64,000 bases of DNA, taken from Alphaproteobacteria bacterium. Lineage in GTDB: Bacteria > Pseudomonadota > Alphaproteobacteria > SP197. The position numbers were made by a program, and so were the translations under genes. The stretch is from positions 288,001 through 352,000 of the forward strand of contig OZ219920.1 of assembly GCA_964291415.2 (NCBI GenBank), read 5' to 3'. Shown one piece after another: positions 4,833 through 54,446 of the stretch. Position 1 is the first letter of the stretch, and the number at the start of each line of letters is the position of its first letter. Below the pieces are notes generated by a model, which made no database searches, had not been told where the DNA came from, and saw only the letters and a list, made by a program, of their open reading frames with translations.

Positions 4833-5123
4833 ATGGCACAAAGCAAGATTGTGAGTTTTGCCGTGGCGGGCGCCGTCGCCGCGGCGCTCTCGGCCCACAC
4901 CGCCGGGACCGTTCAGGCGGCAGAGGAGAAGTGCTACGGCGTGGCGCTGGCCGGCGAGAACGACTGTGCGGCGGGTGAAGGCACGACCTGTGCAGGCACC
5001 TCCACGGTCGATTACCAGGGCAATGCCTGGTCGCTGGTTCCGGAAGGAACCTGCCTGACCATGGAACTCCCCGGTGATCGCAACGGGTCCCTCGAAGAGC
5101 TCGATCGCGACCTGCCCGGATAA
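4833..5123 (+). CDS. bufA1: DUF2282 bufferin (BufA1-type) RiPP metallophore precursor with Sec signal
   Basis: Signal peptide, then [26 protein letters not shown]...W..VPEGTC (4 Cys); adjacent to DUF692. Confidence 0.92.
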
Positions 5124-5132
5124 GTGCGGCGG

Positions 5133-5158
5133 CGACCCCGGCCACCTGGCCGGGGTCG
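5133..5158 (+). other. Perfect 12-bp stem-loop between precursor and MNIO gene
   Basis: CGACCCCGGCCA-cc-TGGCCGGGGTCG. Confidence 0.7.
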
Positions 5159-5166
5159 AATCGCGG

Positions 5167-6021
5167 ATGCCCGCGGAAACTCCGGCCCTTCCGCCGGACG
5201 TCGGCGTCGGCTTCAAGCTGCGGCACCTCGAGGACGCCCTGGCAGCGCCCGGACCGGTGACGTGGCTGGAGGTCCACGCGGAAAACTACATGGTCGATGG
5301 CGGACCGAGGATGGCTGCGCTGCGGCGCGTCGCCGAACGGTTCGCCATTTCCTGTCACGGAGTGGGCCTTTCCATCGGCTCAGACGAGCCGCTTGACCGC
5401 GAGCATCTCGATCGTCTCGCCGGTCTCGTGAATCGGTTCGCGCCGGCCATGGTGTCGGAACACCTGGCCTGGTCGCGGCACGGTCATCACTGTTTCAACG
5501 ACCTTCTTCCCGTGGCGTACGACGAGGTCGCCCTGAACCGGGTGTGCGGCCACGTCGACGAGGTGCAGGAGCGCCTCGGCCGGCGAATCCTCATCGAGAA
5601 CCCGGCGAACTACCTCATCTGGGCCAGCAGCACCCTGGAAGAGACCGCATTCCTGGAGGAGATGGCCAGACGCACCGGGTGCGGTCTCCTCCTCGATCTC
5701 AACAACGTCCATGTCTCGGCCGTCAACCTGGGATTCGATGCGCGCGACTGGCTGGAGTCCTTCCCGCTCTCCGCCGCCGCCGAGATCCACCTTGCCGGTC
5801 ACCACGAAGACCGGGACGACGACGGTTCGCGGTTGCTCATCGATTCCCATGGTGCTGCAGTCGTGGATGACGTGCTGGCGCTCTACGGCGACGTCTGTGC
5901 GCGTACCGGTCCCCTGCCGACTCTCATCGAATGGGACAGCGACGTTCCGCCATGGTCCACACTGGTCGCCGAGGCCAGCCGTGCCGGCGCCATCCTCGAG
6001 GCGGCGCGTCGACATGACTGA
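5167..6021 (+). CDS. bufB: DUF692 multinuclear non-heme iron oxidative enzyme (MNIO), bufferin maturase
   Basis: LEVHAENYM, CHGVGLSIG, SEHLAW, DLLP, IENP, LLLDLNNV, EIHLAGH, IDSH and IEWD motifs. Confidence 0.95.
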   Translation: MPAETPALPPDVGVGFKLRHLEDALAAPGPVTWLEVHAENYMVDGGPRMAALRRVAERFAISCHGVGLSIGSDEPLDREHLDRLAGLVNRFAPAMVSEHLAWSRHGHHCFNDLLPVAYDEVALNRVCGHVDEVQERLGRRILIENPANYLIWASSTLEETAFLEEMARRTGCGLLLDLNNVHVSAVNLGFDARDWLESFPLSAAAEIHLAGHHEDRDDDGSRLLIDSHGAAVVDDVLALYGDVCARTGPLPTLIEWDSDVPPWSTLVAEASRAGAILEAARRHD

Positions 6022-6790
6022 CAGTCAGGGCGTGTTCGCGAAGGCGCTTCTCGATCCCTCGGCGCGGATTCCGGAGGGCCTGCGGCGCCCCGACGGCGCG
6101 CCGGCTGCCCGGCGCTTCGACATCTACCGCAACAATGTCGTCGCCTCTCTCGTCGATGCGCTGGCCGATTCCTTCGGTGTCACCCATTCCATTGTCGGCA
6201 GGGCGTTCTTCCGCGCCATGGCGGGAGAGTTTGTCCGAGCCCATCCTCCGCGCACGCCCTGCGTGATCGACTACGGAGACTGTTTCCCCGATTTCATCGA
6301 CGGCTTTGACCCGGCCGGCGGATTGCCCTACCTGGGCGACGTGGCGCGTCTCGAGGTGGCGCGCCGACGATCCTACCACGCCGCGGACGACGGCATCGCC
6401 GATCCCGGCTGTCTCGCCGGCCTCGACGAGGAAGCGCTGCTCGGAACCCGCATGAAGTTCAGGGCGTCCACGGCCATCGTGCGGTCGTCACACCCCTTGT
6501 GGTCCATCTGGCGTCACAACACGACGGACGAGTCATCGCCCGTTCCGGTCCGCTCCGAGGACGTCCTGGTGTCACGGCCCGCTGACAGCGTCCTTCTTCA
6601 CAGGCTGCCGCCAGGGAGCGCCGATCTTCTCGAGAGTCTCTCGAGAGGCGACTCCCTGGGAGACGCTGTCCGCACGTGCGAAGGCGTCGTCGACCTCGCC
6701 GCCAGTCTCACCGTCGTCCTCGATGCCCGCGCCATCAAAGAGATTGCTCCTCCTGGTTCTGCGCCGGAATCTGTTGGCCGATCCACCTGA
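6014..6790 (+). CDS. DUF2063 (HvfC/BufC-like) MNIO partner protein
   Basis: RFDIYRNNVVASLVDAL, VGRAFFRAMA, YG..FPDFI, PYLGDVARLE...YHAAD. Confidence 0.9.
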   Translation: MTDSQGVFAKALLDPSARIPEGLRRPDGAPAARRFDIYRNNVVASLVDALADSFGVTHSIVGRAFFRAMAGEFVRAHPPRTPCVIDYGDCFPDFIDGFDPAGGLPYLGDVARLEVARRRSYHAADDGIADPGCLAGLDEEALLGTRMKFRASTAIVRSSHPLWSIWRHNTTDESSPVPVRSEDVLVSRPADSVLLHRLPPGSADLLESLSRGDSLGDAVRTCEGVVDLAASLTVVLDARAIKEIAPPGSAPESVGRST

Positions 6791-8443: not shown

Positions 8444-8504
8444 TGAACCCTCTGCATTCCCTGGAAATGTCGTGGGGCTGTGAACCCTCTGCATTCCCTG
8501 GAAA
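8444..8504 (+). repeat. 24-bp direct repeat duplicating the DoxX gene start
   Basis: TGAACCCTCTGCATTCCCTGGAAA at 8444-8467 and 8481-8504, separated by 13 nt. Confidence 0.9.
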
Positions 8505-9031
8505 ACCGGATCATCGGACCGCTGGGCGATCTGCTCGGCGGCGCCGTTCTCACCACCCTGGCGCGTCTGGTCTTTCTGACCACGCTGGCAACCTTCTTCT
8601 GGACGTCAGCCACCACCAAGCTCGGTGAGGGAATCGTGGGCATTGTTTCGCCTTCGACCGGCGCCTATGCGCAGATCCTGCCGGTGCAGATCGAGGCTGT
8701 AGGCTACGATGTCTCGCAACTCGGTGTGATCTCCTGGCTGATTGTGGTGGCGGGAATGTGGGCGGAATTCCTGCTGCCCTTCCTCATCGTCATCGGCCTC
8801 TTCACGCGCTCGGCCGCTCTCGGAATGATCGGCTTCATCGTCGTCATGAGCATCGTTGATATTGCCGGCCACGGTGCCGGGGCGGTGACCATCGGAGCCT
8901 GGTTCGACAATGTTCCCGATGCGAAGATTCTCGATCAGCGCGCTCTGTGGATTCTGCTGCTTCTCATTCCCCTGACCAAGGGAGCGGGGCCGCTGTCGGT
9001 CGATGCCTTCTTCCTGCGCCGTCGATTCTGA
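8480..9031 (+). CDS. DoxX family membrane protein (bufferin BufD-like); start region disrupted
   Basis: LARLVF...FFWTSATTK, AEFLLPFLIVIGLFTRSAALGMIGFI, DQR and GAGPLSVD. Confidence 0.88.
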   Translation: MNPLHSLENRIIGPLGDLLGGAVLTTLARLVFLTTLATFFWTSATTKLGEGIVGIVSPSTGAYAQILPVQIEAVGYDVSQLGVISWLIVVAGMWAEFLLPFLIVIGLFTRSAALGMIGFIVVMSIVDIAGHGAGAVTIGAWFDNVPDAKILDQRALWILLLLIPLTKGAGPLSVDAFFLRRRF

Positions 9032-9034
9032 GCG

Positions 9035-10084
9035 TCAGATGAAACCGGTCAGGGCCTGAACGCACCAGCCCATGAGGACGGCCGCGCCAAGTCCCAGCCC
9101 GAGGTAGAGAGCGAAGACCTTGCGGCGAACGACGACGTAGACGGCCATGGCCGTGGGGATGCTGGTGATCTCGCCGCCGATGAGAAAGGCGATGGCTGCA
9201 CCCTGCTCCATGCCCAGTTGCAACAACCCGTCGATGACCGGCACTGCGGCATAGCCGTGAAGGTACGTGGGCATGCCGATGAACGCAGCCACCGGCACCG
9301 TCCACCAGGCGCCCGATCCGAGAACGCTGGCGGCGGCGTCCGGCGGCACCCAGGCGAGAAGCAGGCTTTCAATGACGAATGCGAGGGTCAGCCACTTCAC
9401 CATGAAGAGACCGATGGCGCGGGCCTGACCGACGAAACGGCTCCACCGCTCGGGGTCCCGCCAGAATGCCAGCATGACGGGTCTGGTGCTGTCGAGATCG
9501 CATCCCGTGCCGTAGACCGTGCCCAGGTCCGCGAATGGGATGTCGGGCTTGAGGGGTGATTGGACCCAGGCAAGACGGGCGAGTGCAAGCGTCGCAAAGC
9601 CGGCGAGAAGTCCGGAGACGATCGCCGTGCCCGTGCGCACGAGAGCGAACGGGAGGTCGATGATTCCTGCGGTAAGGACGAACATTTCCGGGTCGATGAG
9701 CGGAGAGCCCACCCAGAAGGCCATGACGGGCGCCAGTGGTACGCCCGCGGCCAGCAGCCCGGCCACGAGCGGCACTACGCTGACCGAGCAGAAGGGGGAG
9801 AGGGCGCCCAGCACACCGGCGATGACCACGGCTTCCCCGGCGCGCCGCCGCAGGGATTCCCCGAGAGGGCGGTCGAGGGCCGTGGCGGCAATCGATGCCG
9901 CGAGCACGGCCGAGACAAGGACGAAGGGCAGGGTCCAGAGCCAGCTGGTGGCGAGGAACTCCAGCGAGACAAGGAACAGGTCCCTGTCAAGGACGAGGAC
10001 ACCGAGCAGGATGAGGGCGGATGCCGCCCACACCCTGTCGATGCGTCGAAGATGCGTCGATGCCTGGCCGGTGGCGACGGTCAT
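9035..10084 (-). CDS. DUF318/ArsP-like permease
   Basis: Multi-TM protein with SPFCSVSVVP, PLAPVMAFWVGSPLIDP, PTYL.GYAA.P and AFLIGG.ITSIP. Confidence 0.85.
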   Translation of the reverse strand: MTVATGQASTHLRRIDRVWAASALILLGVLVLDRDLFLVSLEFLATSWLWTLPFVLVSAVLAASIAATALDRPLGESLRRRAGEAVVIAGVLGALSPFCSVSVVPLVAGLLAAGVPLAPVMAFWVGSPLIDPEMFVLTAGIIDLPFALVRTGTAIVSGLLAGFATLALARLAWVQSPLKPDIPFADLGTVYGTGCDLDSTRPVMLAFWRDPERWSRFVGQARAIGLFMVKWLTLAFVIESLLLAWVPPDAAASVLGSGAWWTVPVAAFIGMPTYLHGYAAVPVIDGLLQLGMEQGAAIAFLIGGEITSIPTAMAVYVVVRRKVFALYLGLGLGAAVLMGWCVQALTGFI

Positions 10085-10085
10085 G

Positions 10086-10250
10086 TCAGCGAGTGTAGCG
10101 ATCGAAGGGTCCCCGTGTCATCAGGAGGACCCGGTCGGACGTGTCGGCATGGCCATCAAGACCGATGTCCCGAAGCAGGTGGTGGTCGAGACGCCTGATC
10201 TCGTCGATGGTCCGGCGACGCACGAGGGACTTGCGGATGCGATCAAACAT
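10086..10250 (-). CDS. DUF1127 small Arg-rich protein
   Basis: RRRTIDEIRRLDHHLLRDIGL signature; divergent from a LysR gene. Confidence 0.8.
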   Translation of the reverse strand: MFDRIRKSLVRRRTIDEIRRLDHHLLRDIGLDGHADTSDRVLLMTRGPFDRYTR

Positions 10251-10345
10251 TTCTTGATCTCCGATCTGAACTGTGACCTTGATATTGTGTCTGAATTGGC
10301 CGCATGCAAGCGAGATGTGTTGCACAGATCTTCAAGTATTTCTCA

Positions 10346-11275
10346 ATGAATGAACGTTTGCCCTCGCTCAACGCCCTGCGAGCACTCGACGCCGCCGGAA
10401 GACACCTGAGCCTCACCCGGGCCGCCATTGAACTCAACGTGACGCCGGCGGCAGTCAGTCACCAGATCCGCCTTCTCGAGAAGGATCTCGGTGTCACCCT
10501 TCTCGAACGCGAGGGACGCGGGATCAGGCCGACACCCGCGGCCCTGGCCGGCATGGCGGAACTGCGCCGGGGATTCGACCATGTGGCAGAAGCTGTCCGC
10601 CGCATGCGCGATACCCGGACCGAGCCGCTCCTGCGGGTCACGTCCGAGACCACCTTTGCCGGCAACTGGCTGGTTCCGCGGCTCGCCCGTTTCCGCGAAC
10701 GCTGTCCGCATCTCGATGTTCTCATCGATGCCTCGGACCGCCTTGTCGACTTTGATCGAGAGGACTTCGACATCGGTGTCAGGTGGGGTGGCGGCGACTA
10801 TCCCGGGCTGGCCGCCGAAAAGCTCTTTGATGATGAGGAGGCCTTTGCGGTCTGCCATCACTCCCTGCTGCACGGTCGCCATCCCATCACCGAACCCCGG
10901 GACCTCGTTCACCACACGCTGATTCACCTCGATTGGCCCACCGGCAAGGGATACTGGCCGACCTGGGACGAGTGGTTCGACGCGGCCGGAGTCTCCAGCG
11001 TCGACACCACGCGGGGACTGCGCTTCACGGTTCACAGCCACGCCCTCCGGGCCGCCGTGGAGGCCCAGGGAGTGGTTCTGACGACACCGTTGCTGGTCGA
11101 TGCCGATCTGCGGTCCGGGTTGCTCGTGGAGCTCTTCGATCTTCGTCTGCCCACCGGGACGCAGACCTATGTCGTCAATCACCGCAAGAGGTCGGACGAA
11201 ACGGCGATCCAGGCATTCAGGAACTGGCTGCTTGAAGAGGCAGGGACGACCCTTGCCGGCATGGCGGAGCGCTGA
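10346..11275 (+). CDS. LysR transcriptional regulator (GcvA-like)
   Basis: LPSLNALRALDAAGRHLSLTRAAIELNVTPAAVSHQIR HTH; WLVPRL. Confidence 0.95.
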   Translation: MNERLPSLNALRALDAAGRHLSLTRAAIELNVTPAAVSHQIRLLEKDLGVTLLEREGRGIRPTPAALAGMAELRRGFDHVAEAVRRMRDTRTEPLLRVTSETTFAGNWLVPRLARFRERCPHLDVLIDASDRLVDFDREDFDIGVRWGGGDYPGLAAEKLFDDEEAFAVCHHSLLHGRHPITEPRDLVHHTLIHLDWPTGKGYWPTWDEWFDAAGVSSVDTTRGLRFTVHSHALRAAVEAQGVVLTTPLLVDADLRSGLLVELFDLRLPTGTQTYVVNHRKRSDETAIQAFRNWLLEEAGTTLAGMAER

Positions 11276-11280
11276 GGAGG

Positions 11281-12544
11281 TCAGCTCACGATATCAAGCA
11301 GGCGGAACCATGCGCCCGCCAGGGGGAGAAGGGCAGAGCGGGTGGCATGTCCCGGCAGTGCCGGCCACGTGAGATCGCGCCAGGGATTGGCTTCGGCATC
11401 TCCCGCCATCACCCTCGCCATGACCTCGCCCATGTGGACGGACATCTGGACACCGTGGCCGCTGTAGCCCATGGCGTGGTGGCAGCCGTCGAAGACTCCT
11501 GCCCGGGGCAGCCGATCCATGGTCATGTCAAGCATGCCGCCCCAGCAGTAGTCGACACGGACATCGTCGAGGACAGGAAAGATCTGTTTCATCGAGCGGG
11601 CAAGGAGGCGTCCGCTCTTCCTGTCCGAGCCCGGATCCGAATGGGCGAAGCGGGCCCGCCCGCCAAAAATCAGCCGGTTGTCCGGCGCCATGCGGAAGTA
11701 GTGCCCGGTGTGTTTCGTGGTGACCGCCGTGCGGCGTGTCGGCATGATCGCATCGACAAGATGCTGTGCCAGCGGTCCGGTCGCGATGATGACACTGCCG
11801 ACGGCCAGGATTCGACGATTGAGATGGGGAAAGGCGGGACCGGTTCCGGCTCCGGTGGCCACGAGGACCTCTTCTGCTTCAAGCGTACCCATGGCTGTCT
11901 CGAGTTCGTGGCCGCCCCCGCCGGGTGACGCCGGTGTTCTCCCAGATCCTGGCGCCGTGGCGATGTGCAGCCCGGGCGAGCCCGTTGCCAAAACGCCCGG
12001 GGTGGAGCGTCGCGCTCCGGTGGTAGACCAGGCCGCCGTGAAACCGTGCCGAGCCGATTTCCCGGGTAAGGTCCCCGGGGCCAACCAGGCTGGTCTGCGG
12101 ATCGATCCCGGATGCCAGGAGCGCGTGGGTCCGGGAGAGCGAGTCGAGGTGGGAGGGCTTTGCCGCCAGCTGGGTCTTGCCGCTGCGCCGGAAGCCGCAG
12201 TCTATGCCTTCGCGCGCGACGACCCGTTCGACAGTCTCGACTGCCCGATCGAAGGTCCGGTAGAAGGTCCGCGCCCGTTCCAGGCCGAACGCGTCGGCCA
12301 CCGTCGCGACCTGTCGGACCAGACCGTTGTTGCAGTGTCCGCCATTGCGCCCGGAAGCGGCGCCGGCCACGCGTCCGGCTTCGAGGACCACGACGTCGAT
12401 TCCGTCGCGGGCCATGGCCAGTGCCGCCGACAGTCCGGTGAAACCCCCACCGATCACCGCCGTCTGGCATCGTGCCGGCAGGCTTGCGGTCTCAGCGCAA
12501 CGGAACGCCGGCGCCGTGTCGAGCCAGCAGGAGAGGGGCTTCAT
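11281..12544 (-). pseudogene. FAD-dependent oxidoreductase (DAO/PuuB family), frameshifted near 11920
   Basis: N-half has IGGGFTG...GAASGRNGG; C-half (YFR...FGGR, WGG, GYSGHGV) is in another frame. Confidence 0.8.
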
Positions 12545-49347: not shown

Positions 49348-49878
49348 ATGGTCATGACACGCTGCAAGACCCTGAGTGCCGTCCTGGTCGTGTTCAGCCT
49401 CGCTGTGGGCGGTCACGCTGCGGCGGAGATGCAGACATCGGTCAACATCACTCCTCAGGGGGTGGCGATCGGCGGCTGGGACACCGTTGCCTACTTCACG
49501 GAGAATCGCGCCGTCATGGGATCGGCGGAATTCTCACACGACTGGCAGGGAGCCACCTGGCATTTTGCCTCGGCTGCCAACCGCGACCTCTTCGCGGGCG
49601 ATCCCGAAGCCTACGCCCCGCAGTTCGGCGGCTGGTGTGCCTATGCCCTGACGCAGGGCGAGTACGCGGCAGAGGTCGACCCCCAACAGGCCTGGACCGT
49701 TCACGAGAACCAGCTGTTCCTCAACTGGAATGCCAAGATTCGCAAGAAATGGGTCAACAATGGCATCGAGGACGGTGTGACCGTCGGCCGCGAGAACTGG
49801 GTTGAGGTCGAGCAGCAGATCCTCGACGGCGAAGCGGAGTATTCGCGCAAGGGGAATTCCCCGTGGAACGATTTGTAA
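49348..49878 (+). CDS. Exported YHS-domain protein (Cys form of YHS selenoprotein family)
   Basis: Signal peptide; AIGGWDTVAYF...W.FASAANRDLF..DPEAYAPQFGGWCAYA. Confidence 0.88.
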   Translation: MVMTRCKTLSAVLVVFSLAVGGHAAAEMQTSVNITPQGVAIGGWDTVAYFTENRAVMGSAEFSHDWQGATWHFASAANRDLFAGDPEAYAPQFGGWCAYALTQGEYAAEVDPQQAWTVHENQLFLNWNAKIRKKWVNNGIEDGVTVGRENWVEVEQQILDGEAEYSRKGNSPWNDL

Positions 49879-51993: not shown

Positions 51994-52887
51994 TCAGTCG
52001 TCTTCCAGGGCGAGTCTGAAGCCGATGAGGATGTGGCGGATGTCCTCGGGCCGGCCGTGCCGGTCAGCCGGGCGGCAGACACCGCAACCGCGATCATCCC
52101 AGGAACCACCCTTGACCCAGTATCGCCCGGGGCGCTGCTCATCGGCGGTCCACTCGAACACCTGTCCGGCGGCATCCAGCATGCCGAAGGGACTCGTCCC
52201 TTCCGGAAACGAGCCCACCGGCATCGTCGAGAAGGGGCCGCGGTCATGGGTGTTGAGTTTCGTGGCGTCCCACGCGTTGCCCCAGGGGAACATCCGGCCA
52301 TCCGTGCCGCGTGCGGCCTTCTCCCACTCGAGCGCCGTCGGCAGGCGCCACAGGCGCCCTGTTTCCCCGGACATCCAGCGGGCATAGGCCATCGCGTCGG
52401 CATGGCTCACGAGAACAACCGGATGGTCGAGCCTGTCGGCCGGTGGTACGCCATCAGTCCAGGCATAGGGCCGTGTGCGGCGGTAGGGATGGATCAGTCC
52501 ATAGCCGTCCCAGGTCTCATTGTCGACGTCGGGCGCGGCGTGGCCCGTGGCCTCGACAAACAGGGCGTAGTCGGCCTGGGTGACGAGGTTCTTCATGATG
52601 AAGAAGGTGCCAAGCTCGACGACGTGACGATCCATGTCATCGTCATACCAGCCCCATTGCCTGGTCCGCGAATGACCATAGGCTTCCTCGTCGAGACGAT
52701 AGGCCCATTCCCTCTCATCCGCGTCGGACCCGGCGATGAAGGATCCCCCGTCGATCCTGACGACCTCGGGGTGAGGCGTATCGTCTGCCGCGGATGAAGC
52801 GTACTGCGACAGAACAAGGAGAGTGACGCAGAGAAACGTGCGCAAGGGACCAGGAACCTTCCTGACAACACCCATAGTGGACCGCAT
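51994..52887 (-). CDS. Exported formylglycine-generating enzyme (SUMF1/FGE-sulfatase) family protein with CxxC
   Basis: Signal peptide; [50 protein letters not shown] and GFRL; start uncertain (52911/52887/52875). Confidence 0.88.
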
Positions 52888-53019
52888 ACCATGGGAGCGC
52901 CACAGCGTCATTTCCAGCTTACCATCCTGCCGGGATCAGGGTATCATGGTGGTTTACGTGCGGTGCGCTCCATGAGCGCACTCCCTTCAAGATCTCGAAA
53001 CCGGAGGGTCTCTAACTCC

Positions 53020-53931
53020 ATGGGCAAGCTGAGAAGGAAACTGTTGACGACCACCATGATTCCGGCGGTCGTTGGTCTCGGGAGCGTCATGGCATTCGAT
53101 GCGTCGGCCTGCATGTGCCAGCGCAAGGCGGCTGCCAAGGCCTACACCATGGCCCTCGAAAACCCGGAGGCCGTGGCAGATCCCGCAACGGGCCTGGCTG
53201 CCGGCTGTGATGCCTGCGGCGGCTGTGGAGCGGGCTGCGGCGCTTGCGGTGGCTGTGGTGCCTGTGGAGCGGGCTGTGGAGCCTGCGGCGGTTGCGGAGC
53301 CTGCGGAGCGGGCTGCGGGGCCTGCGGCGGTTGTGGAGCCTGCGGAGCGGGCTGCGGGGTCTGCAATCCCTGCGCGGCCGAGTGCGAGGAGGATCCGTGC
53401 AATCCGTGTGCGGTCTGCGAGGATCCGTGCGGCGCCAGCCTTGAGACGGCGACGGGCCTGGCTGCCGGCTGCGGAGCCTGCGGCGGCTGTGGTGCCTGTG
53501 GAGCGGGCTGCGGAGCTTGCGGCGGCTGTGGTGCCTGTGGAGCGGGCTGTGGAGCCTGCGGCGGTTGCGGAGCCTGCGGAGCGGGCTGCGGGGTCTGCAA
53601 TCCCTGCGCGGCCGAGTGCGAGGAGGATCCGTGCAATCCGTGTGCGGTCTGCGAGGATCCGTGTGGCGCCAGCCTTTGGCAGCCCGATGACGAAACCAGG
53701 GTTGCCTGGAGTGTCCTGACGGGCGAGCCGAGCGCTGCCTATGTTGCCGGACTGCTGCCCCAGGGTGATGTGCCGGCGATGCTTGACGGGAACGTGGAGC
53801 ATGTTGCCGGACTGGCCGACGAGGGCATCGGTGCGGTTGGCACGGGCGCCACAGGTTCTGGCTCACGGTTCGTTCCGGACGATGCGGCGTCCGACATCGG
53901 CTACTGGCGTTACACACTGCTGGTGTCCTGA
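53020..53931 (+). CDS. Secreted Cys/Gly-rich repeat protein (45 Cys), unknown function
   Basis: GGAGG RBS; signal-like N-terminus ending ASA; repeats vary mainly at third codon positions in this frame, indicating coding selection. Confidence 0.8.
53185..53676 (+). repeat. Nested coding repeats: 39-nt units (CGACGGCGACGAG) inside two larger modules (53185-53442 and 53449-53676)
   Basis: Each module reads ATGLAAG-(CGACGGCGACGAG)[31 protein letters not shown]. Confidence 0.95.
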
Positions 53932-53945
53932 TTACCGGGCGCTCC

Positions 53946-54446
53946 GTGCCTGGTGGTGACAGACTCCGTCGTCGCGGCCACGCCGCTGGATACCATGACA
54001 AGGGCCGGATCGGCATCGCTGCCGGCTCGGCCCTTGTCGTTCTTGTGCTCTTCATGGCGCTGGGCCGTGCCGGAGACGGGACGTTGGCAGCCGACAGCGC
54101 CTGGGCGCTGGCTGGCGGTGATTCCCTTCTCGTCATCGACGTGAGAACCGTCCGCGAATGGCGGACCACCGGTCTGCCGGAAAAGGCGGTGGGCATCAGC
54201 CTTGCCGGTCAAGGTGTTGCCTCCTTTGTCGACGCGGTGCTTGAAGCGGTTGACGGCGACCGCTCGCATCCCCTTGCGACGATATGCGCCTCCGGTGTGC
54301 GTTCGGCTCGGGCAGCCGATATCCTGCAGCGTCACGGGTTTGTGGACGTTTACGACATTGCCGAGGGCATGATGGGGAACGGGCACGGCCCAGGCTGGAT
54401 CGGACGCGGACTGCCGCTTCGTGCCATGGACGGCAGCGATTCATGA
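53946..54446 (+). CDS. Exported/membrane-anchored single-domain rhodanese
   Basis: Hydrophobic N-terminus, VIDVRTVREW..TG.P, ICASGVRS, EGM.G...GW...LP; start uncertain. Confidence 0.82.
   Translation: MPGGDRLRRRGHAAGYHDKGRIGIAAGSALVVLVLFMALGRAGDGTLAADSAWALAGGDSLLVIDVRTVREWRTTGLPEKAVGISLAGQGVASFVDAVLEAVDGDRSHPLATICASGVRSARAADILQRHGFVDVYDIAEGMMGNGHGPGWIGRGLPLRAMDGSDS

Follow-up and report, generated by a model that had tools for sequence, protein, structure and literature searches.

A two-module poly-cysteine protein from an alphaproteobacterium is very probably a haem-less descendant of a marine family of cysteine-arm P460 fusions

Within a 64,000-nucleotide stretch of DNA from an alphaproteobacterium of the lineage SP197 (assembly GCA_964291415.2, contig OZ219920.1, positions 288,001 to 352,000 of the forward strand; hereafter the window), the gene at 53020..53931 encodes P0001, a protein of 303 residues, 45 of which (14.9%) are cysteines. 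P0001 is very probably an exported and intrinsically unstructured protein made of two cysteine-rich modules, the arm-only descendant of a marine family in which such arms are fused to a haem-binding P460 domain, with a tail that is the leftover of the lost haem domain. An initial annotation of the same DNA had recognized the gene, its modules and the mark of selection on them, all of which stand; it had also proposed a precursor of a ribosomally synthesized and post-translationally modified peptide (RiPP), which is not supported, and had overlooked both the P460-derived tail and the fusion family with its two characteristic partners, a relative of the formylglycine-generating enzyme (FGE) and a DUF6969 protein.

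The tail of P0001 as a P460 remnant

The reading frame of P0001 stays open through 303 codons and a stop and is present as a single copy in its own genome. Together with a GGAGG ribosome-binding site and the homologues described below, this bears out the earlier call of a real gene. The gene and the sites immediately upstream of it are laid out as follows.

53020..53931 (stop included), plus strand: poly-cysteine arm protein P0001, 303 aa, 45 Cys; open reading frame and translation, with homologues conserved at both ends
53003..53007, plus strand: GGAGG ribosome-binding site, 12 nt upstream of the ATG; read from the sequence
52919..52947, plus strand: sigma-70-like promoter match TTACCA-17 nt-TATCAT within the 108-nt divergent intergenic region; a consensus match only
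53020..53109, plus strand: signal-peptide-like N-terminus, aa 1-30, with a basic n-region, a hydrophobic core and ASA; read from the sequence
53110..53184, plus strand: post-signal segment, aa 31-55, with the linker motif ENPEAV; conserved, the motif recurring between modules in relatives
53185..53448, plus strand: module 1, aa 56-143, 23 Cys; ATGLAAG head, 3.8 CG[AG] units, 8-Cys core with two CNPC, CGASL, ET
53449..53676, plus strand: module 2, aa 144-219, 20 Cys; built as module 1, with 3 CG[AG] units
53677..53928, plus strand: tail, aa 220-303, no Cys; probable P460-domain remnant without CxxCH, from hhalign and alignment with same-genus relatives

The descent of P0001 from a haem protein is read from its tail, an acidic segment with 12 D/E against 3 K/R over its 84 residues. 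When the alignment of the window's own group (A1) was compared by hhalign with that of the arm-P460 fusions (A2), the two matched with a probability of 99.6% (E 1.2e-24) over 113 columns that begin at the last CNPC core, take in the tail and end at a shared WRYTL strand. A multiple alignment with full-length relatives shows that the first helix region and the pattern LAxxxxxVxGxG...F...WRYTL are retained, that the tail carries two internal deletions, and that it ends about 45 residues early, ahead of the CxxCH haem site, roughly half of the P460 domain being deleted in P0001. No cysteine follows residue 215, and the aligned FCxxCH of the proteins from genomes G015, G023 and G001 and of the homologue P0012 lies beyond the C-terminus of P0001. 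A search of the window's genome (100% complete by markers) with the P460 profile PF16694 found no such domain anywhere, and the same search detected the domain in all four of the relatives used as a positive control. Because the hhalign match is joined by full fusions at the same locus in relatives, we regard the tail as homologous to P460 and as having probably descended from that domain.

Those full fusions occur in two genomes of the same genus (G015 and G023) and in two of the sister genus (G001 and G002). Their proteins have 3 to more than 6 modules, 42 to more than 160 cysteines and an intact FCxxCH, and the locus is flanked by the DUF6969 gene on one side and by a rhodanese gene on the other, with the FGE-like gene also present in G015 and G023.

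A family of arm-bearing haem proteins

P0001 matched none of the families in Pfam and NCBIfam, in keeping with the earlier impression of an architecture outside described families, and neither the repeat module nor its fusion to P460 nor DUF6969 is described in the literature that we covered, from which most subscription journals were absent. We accordingly rate the arm-P460 fusions as a class without a curated family, and P0001 as the haem-less, arm-only form of this undescribed class.

A homologue search in 5.8 billion clusters returned 24 proteins, nine of them with PF16694; P0012 is recognized as Cytochrome_P460 at 30.4 bits (cut-off 27). Seven proteins (P0002-P0008) match the N-terminus and tail of P0001 almost residue for residue and vary mainly in the length of the cysteine tract and in the number of modules, which is one or two. 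A second group (P0009, P0010, P0014, P0016 and P0017) shares the signal region and the ENPEAV motif with P0001 and carries CNPC repeats in two or three modules. In P0021 and P0023 the arm repeats, with the sequence CNPCAAKK, stand on both flanks of a cytochrome c domain, which in P0023 is of the SoxA/TsdA type and in P0021 gives only a sub-threshold match to CCP_MauG. Since such arms also flank a cytochrome c domain that is not P460, the arm module appears to be mobile between periplasmic haem proteins.

The order to which the window belongs comprises 33 genomes of one family (f1), and the arm profile matches in 19 of them. A scan of metagenomes for the fused form confirmed at least 493 marine stretches, 80 of which were kept as loci for the counts of neighbouring genes given below. 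Most members of the family carry their arms within a folded haem protein of 400 to more than 1000 residues. Other searches returned less: alignment A1 used as a profile against 1.84 billion representatives gave seven matches and did not recover the fusions, probably owing to composition filters; a metagenome scan with the arm-only group A3 gave 448 pattern matches, none of which was confirmed; and the ESM Atlas returned for P0001 only unnamed clusters, the best at 0.79 and below the usable level.

Three further cases are recorded here for their unusual form. P0028 is a protein of 5401 residues in which 22 stretches match the arm profile (E 2.3e-05). At locus L034 (G023:C1, approximately 8460-11430, minus strand), a giant orthologue is read in two overlapping frames of 440 and 752 aa, with 70 and 162 cysteines, and has at least 10 modules ahead of an intact P460 domain; one frame gives way to the other inside the repeats, possibly through a frameshift or an assembly error. 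Finally, the genome that holds L006 contains at a second place (L009 / L039) a one-module copy of 192 aa, behind which stand no more than the first ~55 codons of the rhodanese gene. This copy lies amid integrase-like fragments, at a distance from the FGE-like and DUF6969 genes, and appears to be a fragment of the locus that was transposed or recombined.

Architecture of the cysteine modules and the export signal

The cysteines of P0001 fall at residues 31 and 33, then in module 1 (23) and module 2 (20), with none in the tail, which agrees with the earlier description of two ATGLAAG-led modules followed by an acidic segment free of cysteine. The ATGLAAG heads begin at nt 53185 and 53449. Behind each head stands a tract of 13-residue CG[AG] units with a cysteine at every third residue, made up in module 1 of a 10-residue partial unit and three full ones and in module 2 of three units, and both modules close with an identical 8-Cys core, containing two CNPC motifs, that runs to CGASL. 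Tandem Repeats Finder describes the repeat as 1.9 copies of a 234-nt period with 93% matches and zero indels. When the modules are compared in register (codons 71-141 against 149-219, a 78-codon offset), they differ at 14 codons, all 14 of them synonymous and none non-synonymous; the four non-synonymous differences found at this offset all lie where the ATGLAAG head of module 2 overlaps the repeat units of module 1. The claim that the repeat copies differ at synonymous positions under selection on the protein is thereby sustained, and the rates given in the next section agree with it.

Short reads and other assemblies also bear on the number of modules. In X1, the run that matches the region best, Logan contigs built from short reads cover it, seven of the eight listed pieces without a mismatch; they break inside the repeat, and none of them spans it. 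Two modules are likewise found in separate assemblies of close relatives (L003, 293 aa; L002, 284 aa).

The borders of the modules are the same in three genera, where every module is bounded by CGASL, then (E/D)NP(E/D)A(V/L)P, then TG(L/M)AAGC. ENPEAVP, DNPDALP or NPAAV precedes the modules in these genera and in the P460 fusions; the conserved linker before each cysteine-rich unit, which the initial annotation had pointed out, thus holds as anatomy across genera. A variant is seen in the orthologue of G006 (L023 / L036, G006:C1, minus strand), which is at least 669 aa long and carries 145 cysteines, and in which eight nearly identical modules in a row are followed by more, each preceded by DNPDALP, and in which CDAC, CSAC and CGAC occur with zero NPC. 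Because the arms of G006 do without NPC, the CxxC spacing, and not CNPC, would be the constant feature of the arms.

A structure prediction for P0001 (12-row alignment, modelled without ligand) has a predicted local distance difference test score (pLDDT) of 30.4 throughout, and neither a four-helix bundle nor any other fold was predicted. At the N-terminus, which begins with MGKLRRK or MGDFRRK in all close homologues and is nearly invariant across the signal region among relatives, a basic n-region is followed by a hydrophobic stretch of ~19 residues and by ASA at positions 28-30, an arrangement compatible with either a Sec signal peptide or a signal anchor. The c-type haem of the fused relatives implies Sec export, haem being attached in the periplasm. 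Tat export, Fe-S binding and a lipobox, suggested by the RR at positions 5-6, by the CxxCxxCxxxC spacing and by Cys31/Cys33, were considered and dropped; RR is absent from the fused relatives and Cys31 is not conserved. In the intergenic region upstream, one promoter-like site was found where 0.2 are expected.

Repeated haem loss and continued selection

If P0001 descends from a haem protein, its persistence after the loss calls for a look at how the gene evolves. Among nine genome pairs, the ratio of non-synonymous to synonymous substitution rates (dN/dS) is 0.00-0.13 in the N-terminal 56 codons, 0.00-0.17 in the 27-codon core, 0.23-0.41 in the tail and 0.11-0.21 in the FGE-like gene, figures that are rough because the regions are short. 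The signal region and the core thus appear to be under strong purifying selection, selection on the tail being weaker. Counting the window's own, 10 genomes of the genus carry an intact haem-less form that retains the tail, with 1, 2, 3 or 4 modules.

The loss of the haem domain seems to have happened at least twice, because a second arm-only lineage (P0010, P0014, P0016 and P0017) lost the domain differently and retains of it only the last ~9 residues (...FLPREYRLN; G001 has ...FLPEAFRIN). Two other loci, L020 (G017) and L030 (G022), hold arm-only frames of 148 residues with 24 cysteines, without the WRYT tail and without a haem domain (L020 counted from the start motif, L030 over the whole frame), which would be a third kind of truncation. 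In a sponge metatranscriptome run, a 307-nt contig covers 53550-53856 with 11 differences; this weakly hints at expression in a relative, as such libraries can hold DNA. Taken together, the sequence data suggest that the P0001 gene is live and not decaying.

The FGE-like and DUF6969 partners and the wider neighbourhood

Two genes on the minus strand lie directly upstream of P0001, and a third follows it on its own strand.

51994..52911, minus strand: secreted protein of the FGE-sulfatase family (PF03781, E 2.4e-40); divergent, with an invariant C276-G-V-C279
51246..51992, minus strand: DUF6969 protein (PF22308, E 8.5e-84), no signal peptide
53946..54446, plus strand: rhodanese-domain protein (PF00581, E 5.9e-08) with an N-terminal hydrophobic segment; starts 14 nt past the P0001 stop

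Orthologues of the FGE-like protein share an invariant KGGSWDDxGCG[VI]CR, and the C276 and C279 within it are their only conserved cysteines (22 of 22 sequences). The two essential cysteines reported for active FGEs are spaced C-x4-C (Cys-263/268 in M. tuberculosis and Cys-272/277 in S. coelicolor; PMC2459300), and the FGE site is described as a bis-thiolate Cu(I) site at which the substrate cysteine becomes the third ligand (PMC12123546). By its sequence the protein belongs to this fold family, though its identity as an FGE is doubtful. Searched against solved structures, its 68-residue C-terminus gave only matches at E >= 0.1 (SUMF2, PorK and ToxD), no active FGE among them. The arms lack a CxPxR motif, CNPC being followed by A and not by R, and those of G006 are without NPC altogether. 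A predicted complex between residues 40-304 of the FGE-like protein and module 1 (aa 44-143) scored 0.01, where the mark is 0.32, a value that tells neither for nor against an interaction.

The DUF6969 protein, taken to be cytoplasmic, has an invariant cluster of six histidines and one glutamate (H67, H85, H87, E95, H96, H98 and H100). Its model reached a pLDDT of 85.5, and no fold could be assigned to it: Foldseek found nothing in the PDB at E <= 0.001, VIA-align wide gave a best Z of 7.0 that covered only helical hairpins of ~55 residues, and the ESM Atlas returned DUF6969 clusters only. The rhodanese carries a catalytic-type cysteine, and no terminator-like site was found between its gene and that of P0001.

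How tightly these genes belong to the arms is best judged from the distant fusions, since the synteny among the ten window-like genomic loci says little, all of them being close kin. Beside the fusions, orthologues of the FGE-like protein (54-65% identity) occur in 38 of the 80 metagenome loci and those of DUF6969 in 35. When only the well-flanked loci are considered (at least 2.5 kb upstream and at least 1.5 kb downstream, n=31, drawn from a table of 79 of the 80 rows that is without L119, which fails the flank filter), the FGE-like gene is present in 21, DUF6969 in 19, either in 23, both in 17 and neither in eight, and the FGE-like gene usually lies divergently and directly upstream, as in the window. 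In genus g1 the arm gene is found in 15 of the 23 genomes, which are exactly those with an FGE-like orthologue and a full DUF6969; the other eight have neither partner, save for a DUF6969 fragment in G010. The rhodanese, by comparison, occurs in two of the 80 loci and is syntenic within f1, so it is linked to the arms only within this bacterial family.

The wider neighbourhood was surveyed through the 25 largest gene clusters of the 80 loci, only four of which are named through Pfam. Apart from the genes above, the loci hold a small cytochrome c (16), a Sulf_transp protein of the YeeE type (PF04143; 13), a secreted 161-aa protein (12) and DUF302 (9); no protease or exporter was seen among these clusters. 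In the window itself, a gene for a secreted YHS-domain protein lies at 49348-49878 on the plus strand (PF04945, E 4.4e-07, just below the cut-off). In several genera of the family this gene shows synteny with the locus; its 3' end overlaps the start of a GATase gene.

Possible functions of the arms

We infer that the arms work through their thiolates. The reading that we put forward, at somewhat less than an even chance, is that they bind soft metals in the periplasm, with Cu(I) as a first guess, because of the density of CxxC, the Cu(I)-thiolate chemistry of the family to which the FGE-like partner belongs and the histidine cluster of DUF6969. That no fold is predicted without a ligand, and that the partner keeps exactly two invariant cysteines, leans the same way. 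In such a mechanism, the dense thiolate arrays (the CG[AG] tracts and the 8-Cys core of each module) would bind soft metal ions, perhaps Cu(I), after export. Each module would form one binding unit, set apart from the next by the ENPEAV...TGLAAG linker, and the FGE-like partner, as a relative of a Cu(I)-thiolate enzyme, may handle the same metal or the cysteines of the arms. The number of modules would change fast through unequal recombination (1 to 4 in close relatives) and so could tune the capacity.

Several findings weigh against metal binding. Some are signals of sulfur, namely the rhodanese gene 14 nt downstream, Sulf_transp in 13 and DUF302 in nine of the 80 loci, and the presence of arms on the SoxA/TsdA-like cytochromes P0021 and P0023. 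Free thiols tend to form disulfides in the oxidizing periplasm. Among the 25 largest neighbour clusters, four of them named, nothing for copper resistance or metal regulation stood out. Others concern the partner: its C-x2-C pair is unlike the C-x4-C of active FGEs, and among solved structures the protein comes closest to ToxD (E 5.2e-32) and CalU17, with true FGEs at ~1e-11. The FGE-like gene is absent from 10 of the 31 well-flanked loci, and in genus g2 its orthologue is found in none of three genomes, two of which keep the arm-P460 gene and DUF6969. The co-occurrence in genus g1 could moreover be explained by a single block deletion, because neighbouring genes in related genomes are concerned.

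These sulfur signals lend themselves to the main rival account, doubtful but deserving to be weighed, in which the arms are a carrier of sulfur or of redox equivalents: they would hold sulfane sulfur, as persulfide or polysulfide, or alternate between the dithiol and disulfide states, the neighbouring periplasmic rhodanese would load or unload them, and in the parent family the haem domain would oxidize or reduce their cargo. SoxY has a carrier cysteine flanked by glycines, and the arms would resemble many copies of it. The account gains from the rhodanese gene, with its catalytic-type cysteine, its short distance from P0001 free of any terminator-like site and its synteny throughout f1, as it does from Sulf_transp and DUF302 beside the fusions and from the SoxA/TsdA-type domain that arms flank in P0023. 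However, the rhodanese lies outside the conserved module and is found in only two of the 80 metagenome loci, Sulf_transp and DUF302 are minority neighbours, and neither sox, dsr nor sqr appears among the 25 largest neighbour clusters (four named). It is quite improbable that the arms are instead a substrate for modification, either through an FGE-like enzyme that would alter their cysteines (to formylglycine or otherwise) or through cleavage at the linkers as in a multi-core RiPP precursor. No neighbour recurs as often as the FGE-family gene (38 of 80 loci, 21 of the 31 well-flanked ones), constant linkers of the form CGASL...ENPEAV...TGLAAGC border every module in three genera, and CNPC shares C-x-P with the FGE target motif, which is CxPxR. 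Yet the arm motif has no Arg at +4, G006 keeps an FGE-like neighbour beside arms without NPC, the enzyme has C-x2-C and not C-x4-C, and most arms sit in folded haem proteins of 400 to more than 1000 aa, which are not precursor-like. Nor is an MNIO or a YcaO enzyme linked to the gene: the only MNIO of the genome is encoded at window 5200-5997, 46 kb off, inside its own DUF2282-MNIO-DUF2063 operon, the only YcaO gene lies on another contig (C1), and the survey of the 25 largest neighbour clusters (four named) turned up no protease or exporter, so that the earlier proposal of a RiPP precursor is not upheld.

A relic that decays without function since the haem domain was lost would account for the missing haem site in a genome with no other P460 domain, and for a tail that evolves faster (dN/dS 0.23-0.41) and has no predicted fold. 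We consider this highly improbable, as 10 genomes of the genus carry the frame intact, dN/dS is 0.00-0.17 over the N-terminus and core, the modules differ synonymously only, and the arm-only form arose again in another lineage; the sponge metatranscriptome contig is a weak hint in the same direction. The window offers a natural dissection of the family: the arms were kept, duplicated and selected after haem loss, beside the same two partner genes, which implies that the arrays do something by themselves.

A broader proposal, which we hold to be rather unlikely, is that the arms, the secreted FGE-like C-x2-C protein and the His-rich DUF6969 protein make up a new periplasmic thiol system, in which expandable cysteine arrays would be loaded or altered by the FGE-like partner (with copper, with sulfane sulfur or through a new modification of cysteine) and which would be wired to the P460 haem in the parent family. 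If this were true, the arms and not the haem would be the functional heart of the family, arm-only forms having arisen at least twice and being still under selection. A haem-free construct of ~270 residues and one partner enzyme provide a handle for a first biochemical test. Should the arms bind copper or carry sulfur, they would represent a new periplasmic store or carrier in marine and sponge-associated bacteria; should the FGE-like protein modify them, this would be a new reaction for its enzyme family.

Comparison with known systems

Among the known relatives are the P460 and cytochrome c'-beta proteins (PF16694), to which P0001 is tied by its tail, which aligns with the P460 domain of the fused relatives, the WRYTL strand included, and by a signal sequence and a periplasmic location in common. 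P0001 differs from them in that it has no Pfam match and no CxxCH, and with a tail free of cysteine it cannot bind haem c; conversely, we know of no characterized P460 protein with cysteine-repeat arms. The arm-P460 fusions resemble it in the N-terminus, the NPxAV linker, the CxxC/CNPC modules and the FGE-like and DUF6969 neighbours. They differ in composition, alignment A2 being built of Lys-rich CNPCAAKK units, whereas P0001 combines uncharged CG[AG] tracts with an acidic core and has lost the haem domain.

The likeness to other thiol-rich proteins lies elsewhere. With metallothioneins and the copper storage proteins (Csp, of which Csp1 is an exported, Cys-rich store of Cu(I)), P0001 shares a very high content of cysteine with CxxC spacing, a likeness of composition only; it has no sequence relationship to them, is far larger than metallothioneins, is probably exported and is modular. 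The bufferins, which are DUF2282 proteins modified by MNIO enzymes, are exported and bear cysteines as P0001 does, but are unrelated to it in sequence, and the MNIO gene, 46 kb away, has a DUF2282 precursor of its own. That bufferin-type operon, at window 4833-6787 on the plus strand, encodes a DUF2282 precursor of 96 aa (E 1.6e-24), the MNIO (PF05114, E 3.1e-99) and DUF2063 (E 1.2e-25). With the aerobic FGE and its sulfatase, finally, the locus has in common a neighbour of the FGE-sulfatase fold family with two invariant cysteines near its C-terminus, and arms whose CNPC contains C-x-P; it departs from that pair in the C-x2-C spacing in place of C-x4-C, in arms without CxPxR, and in that no sulfatase is involved.

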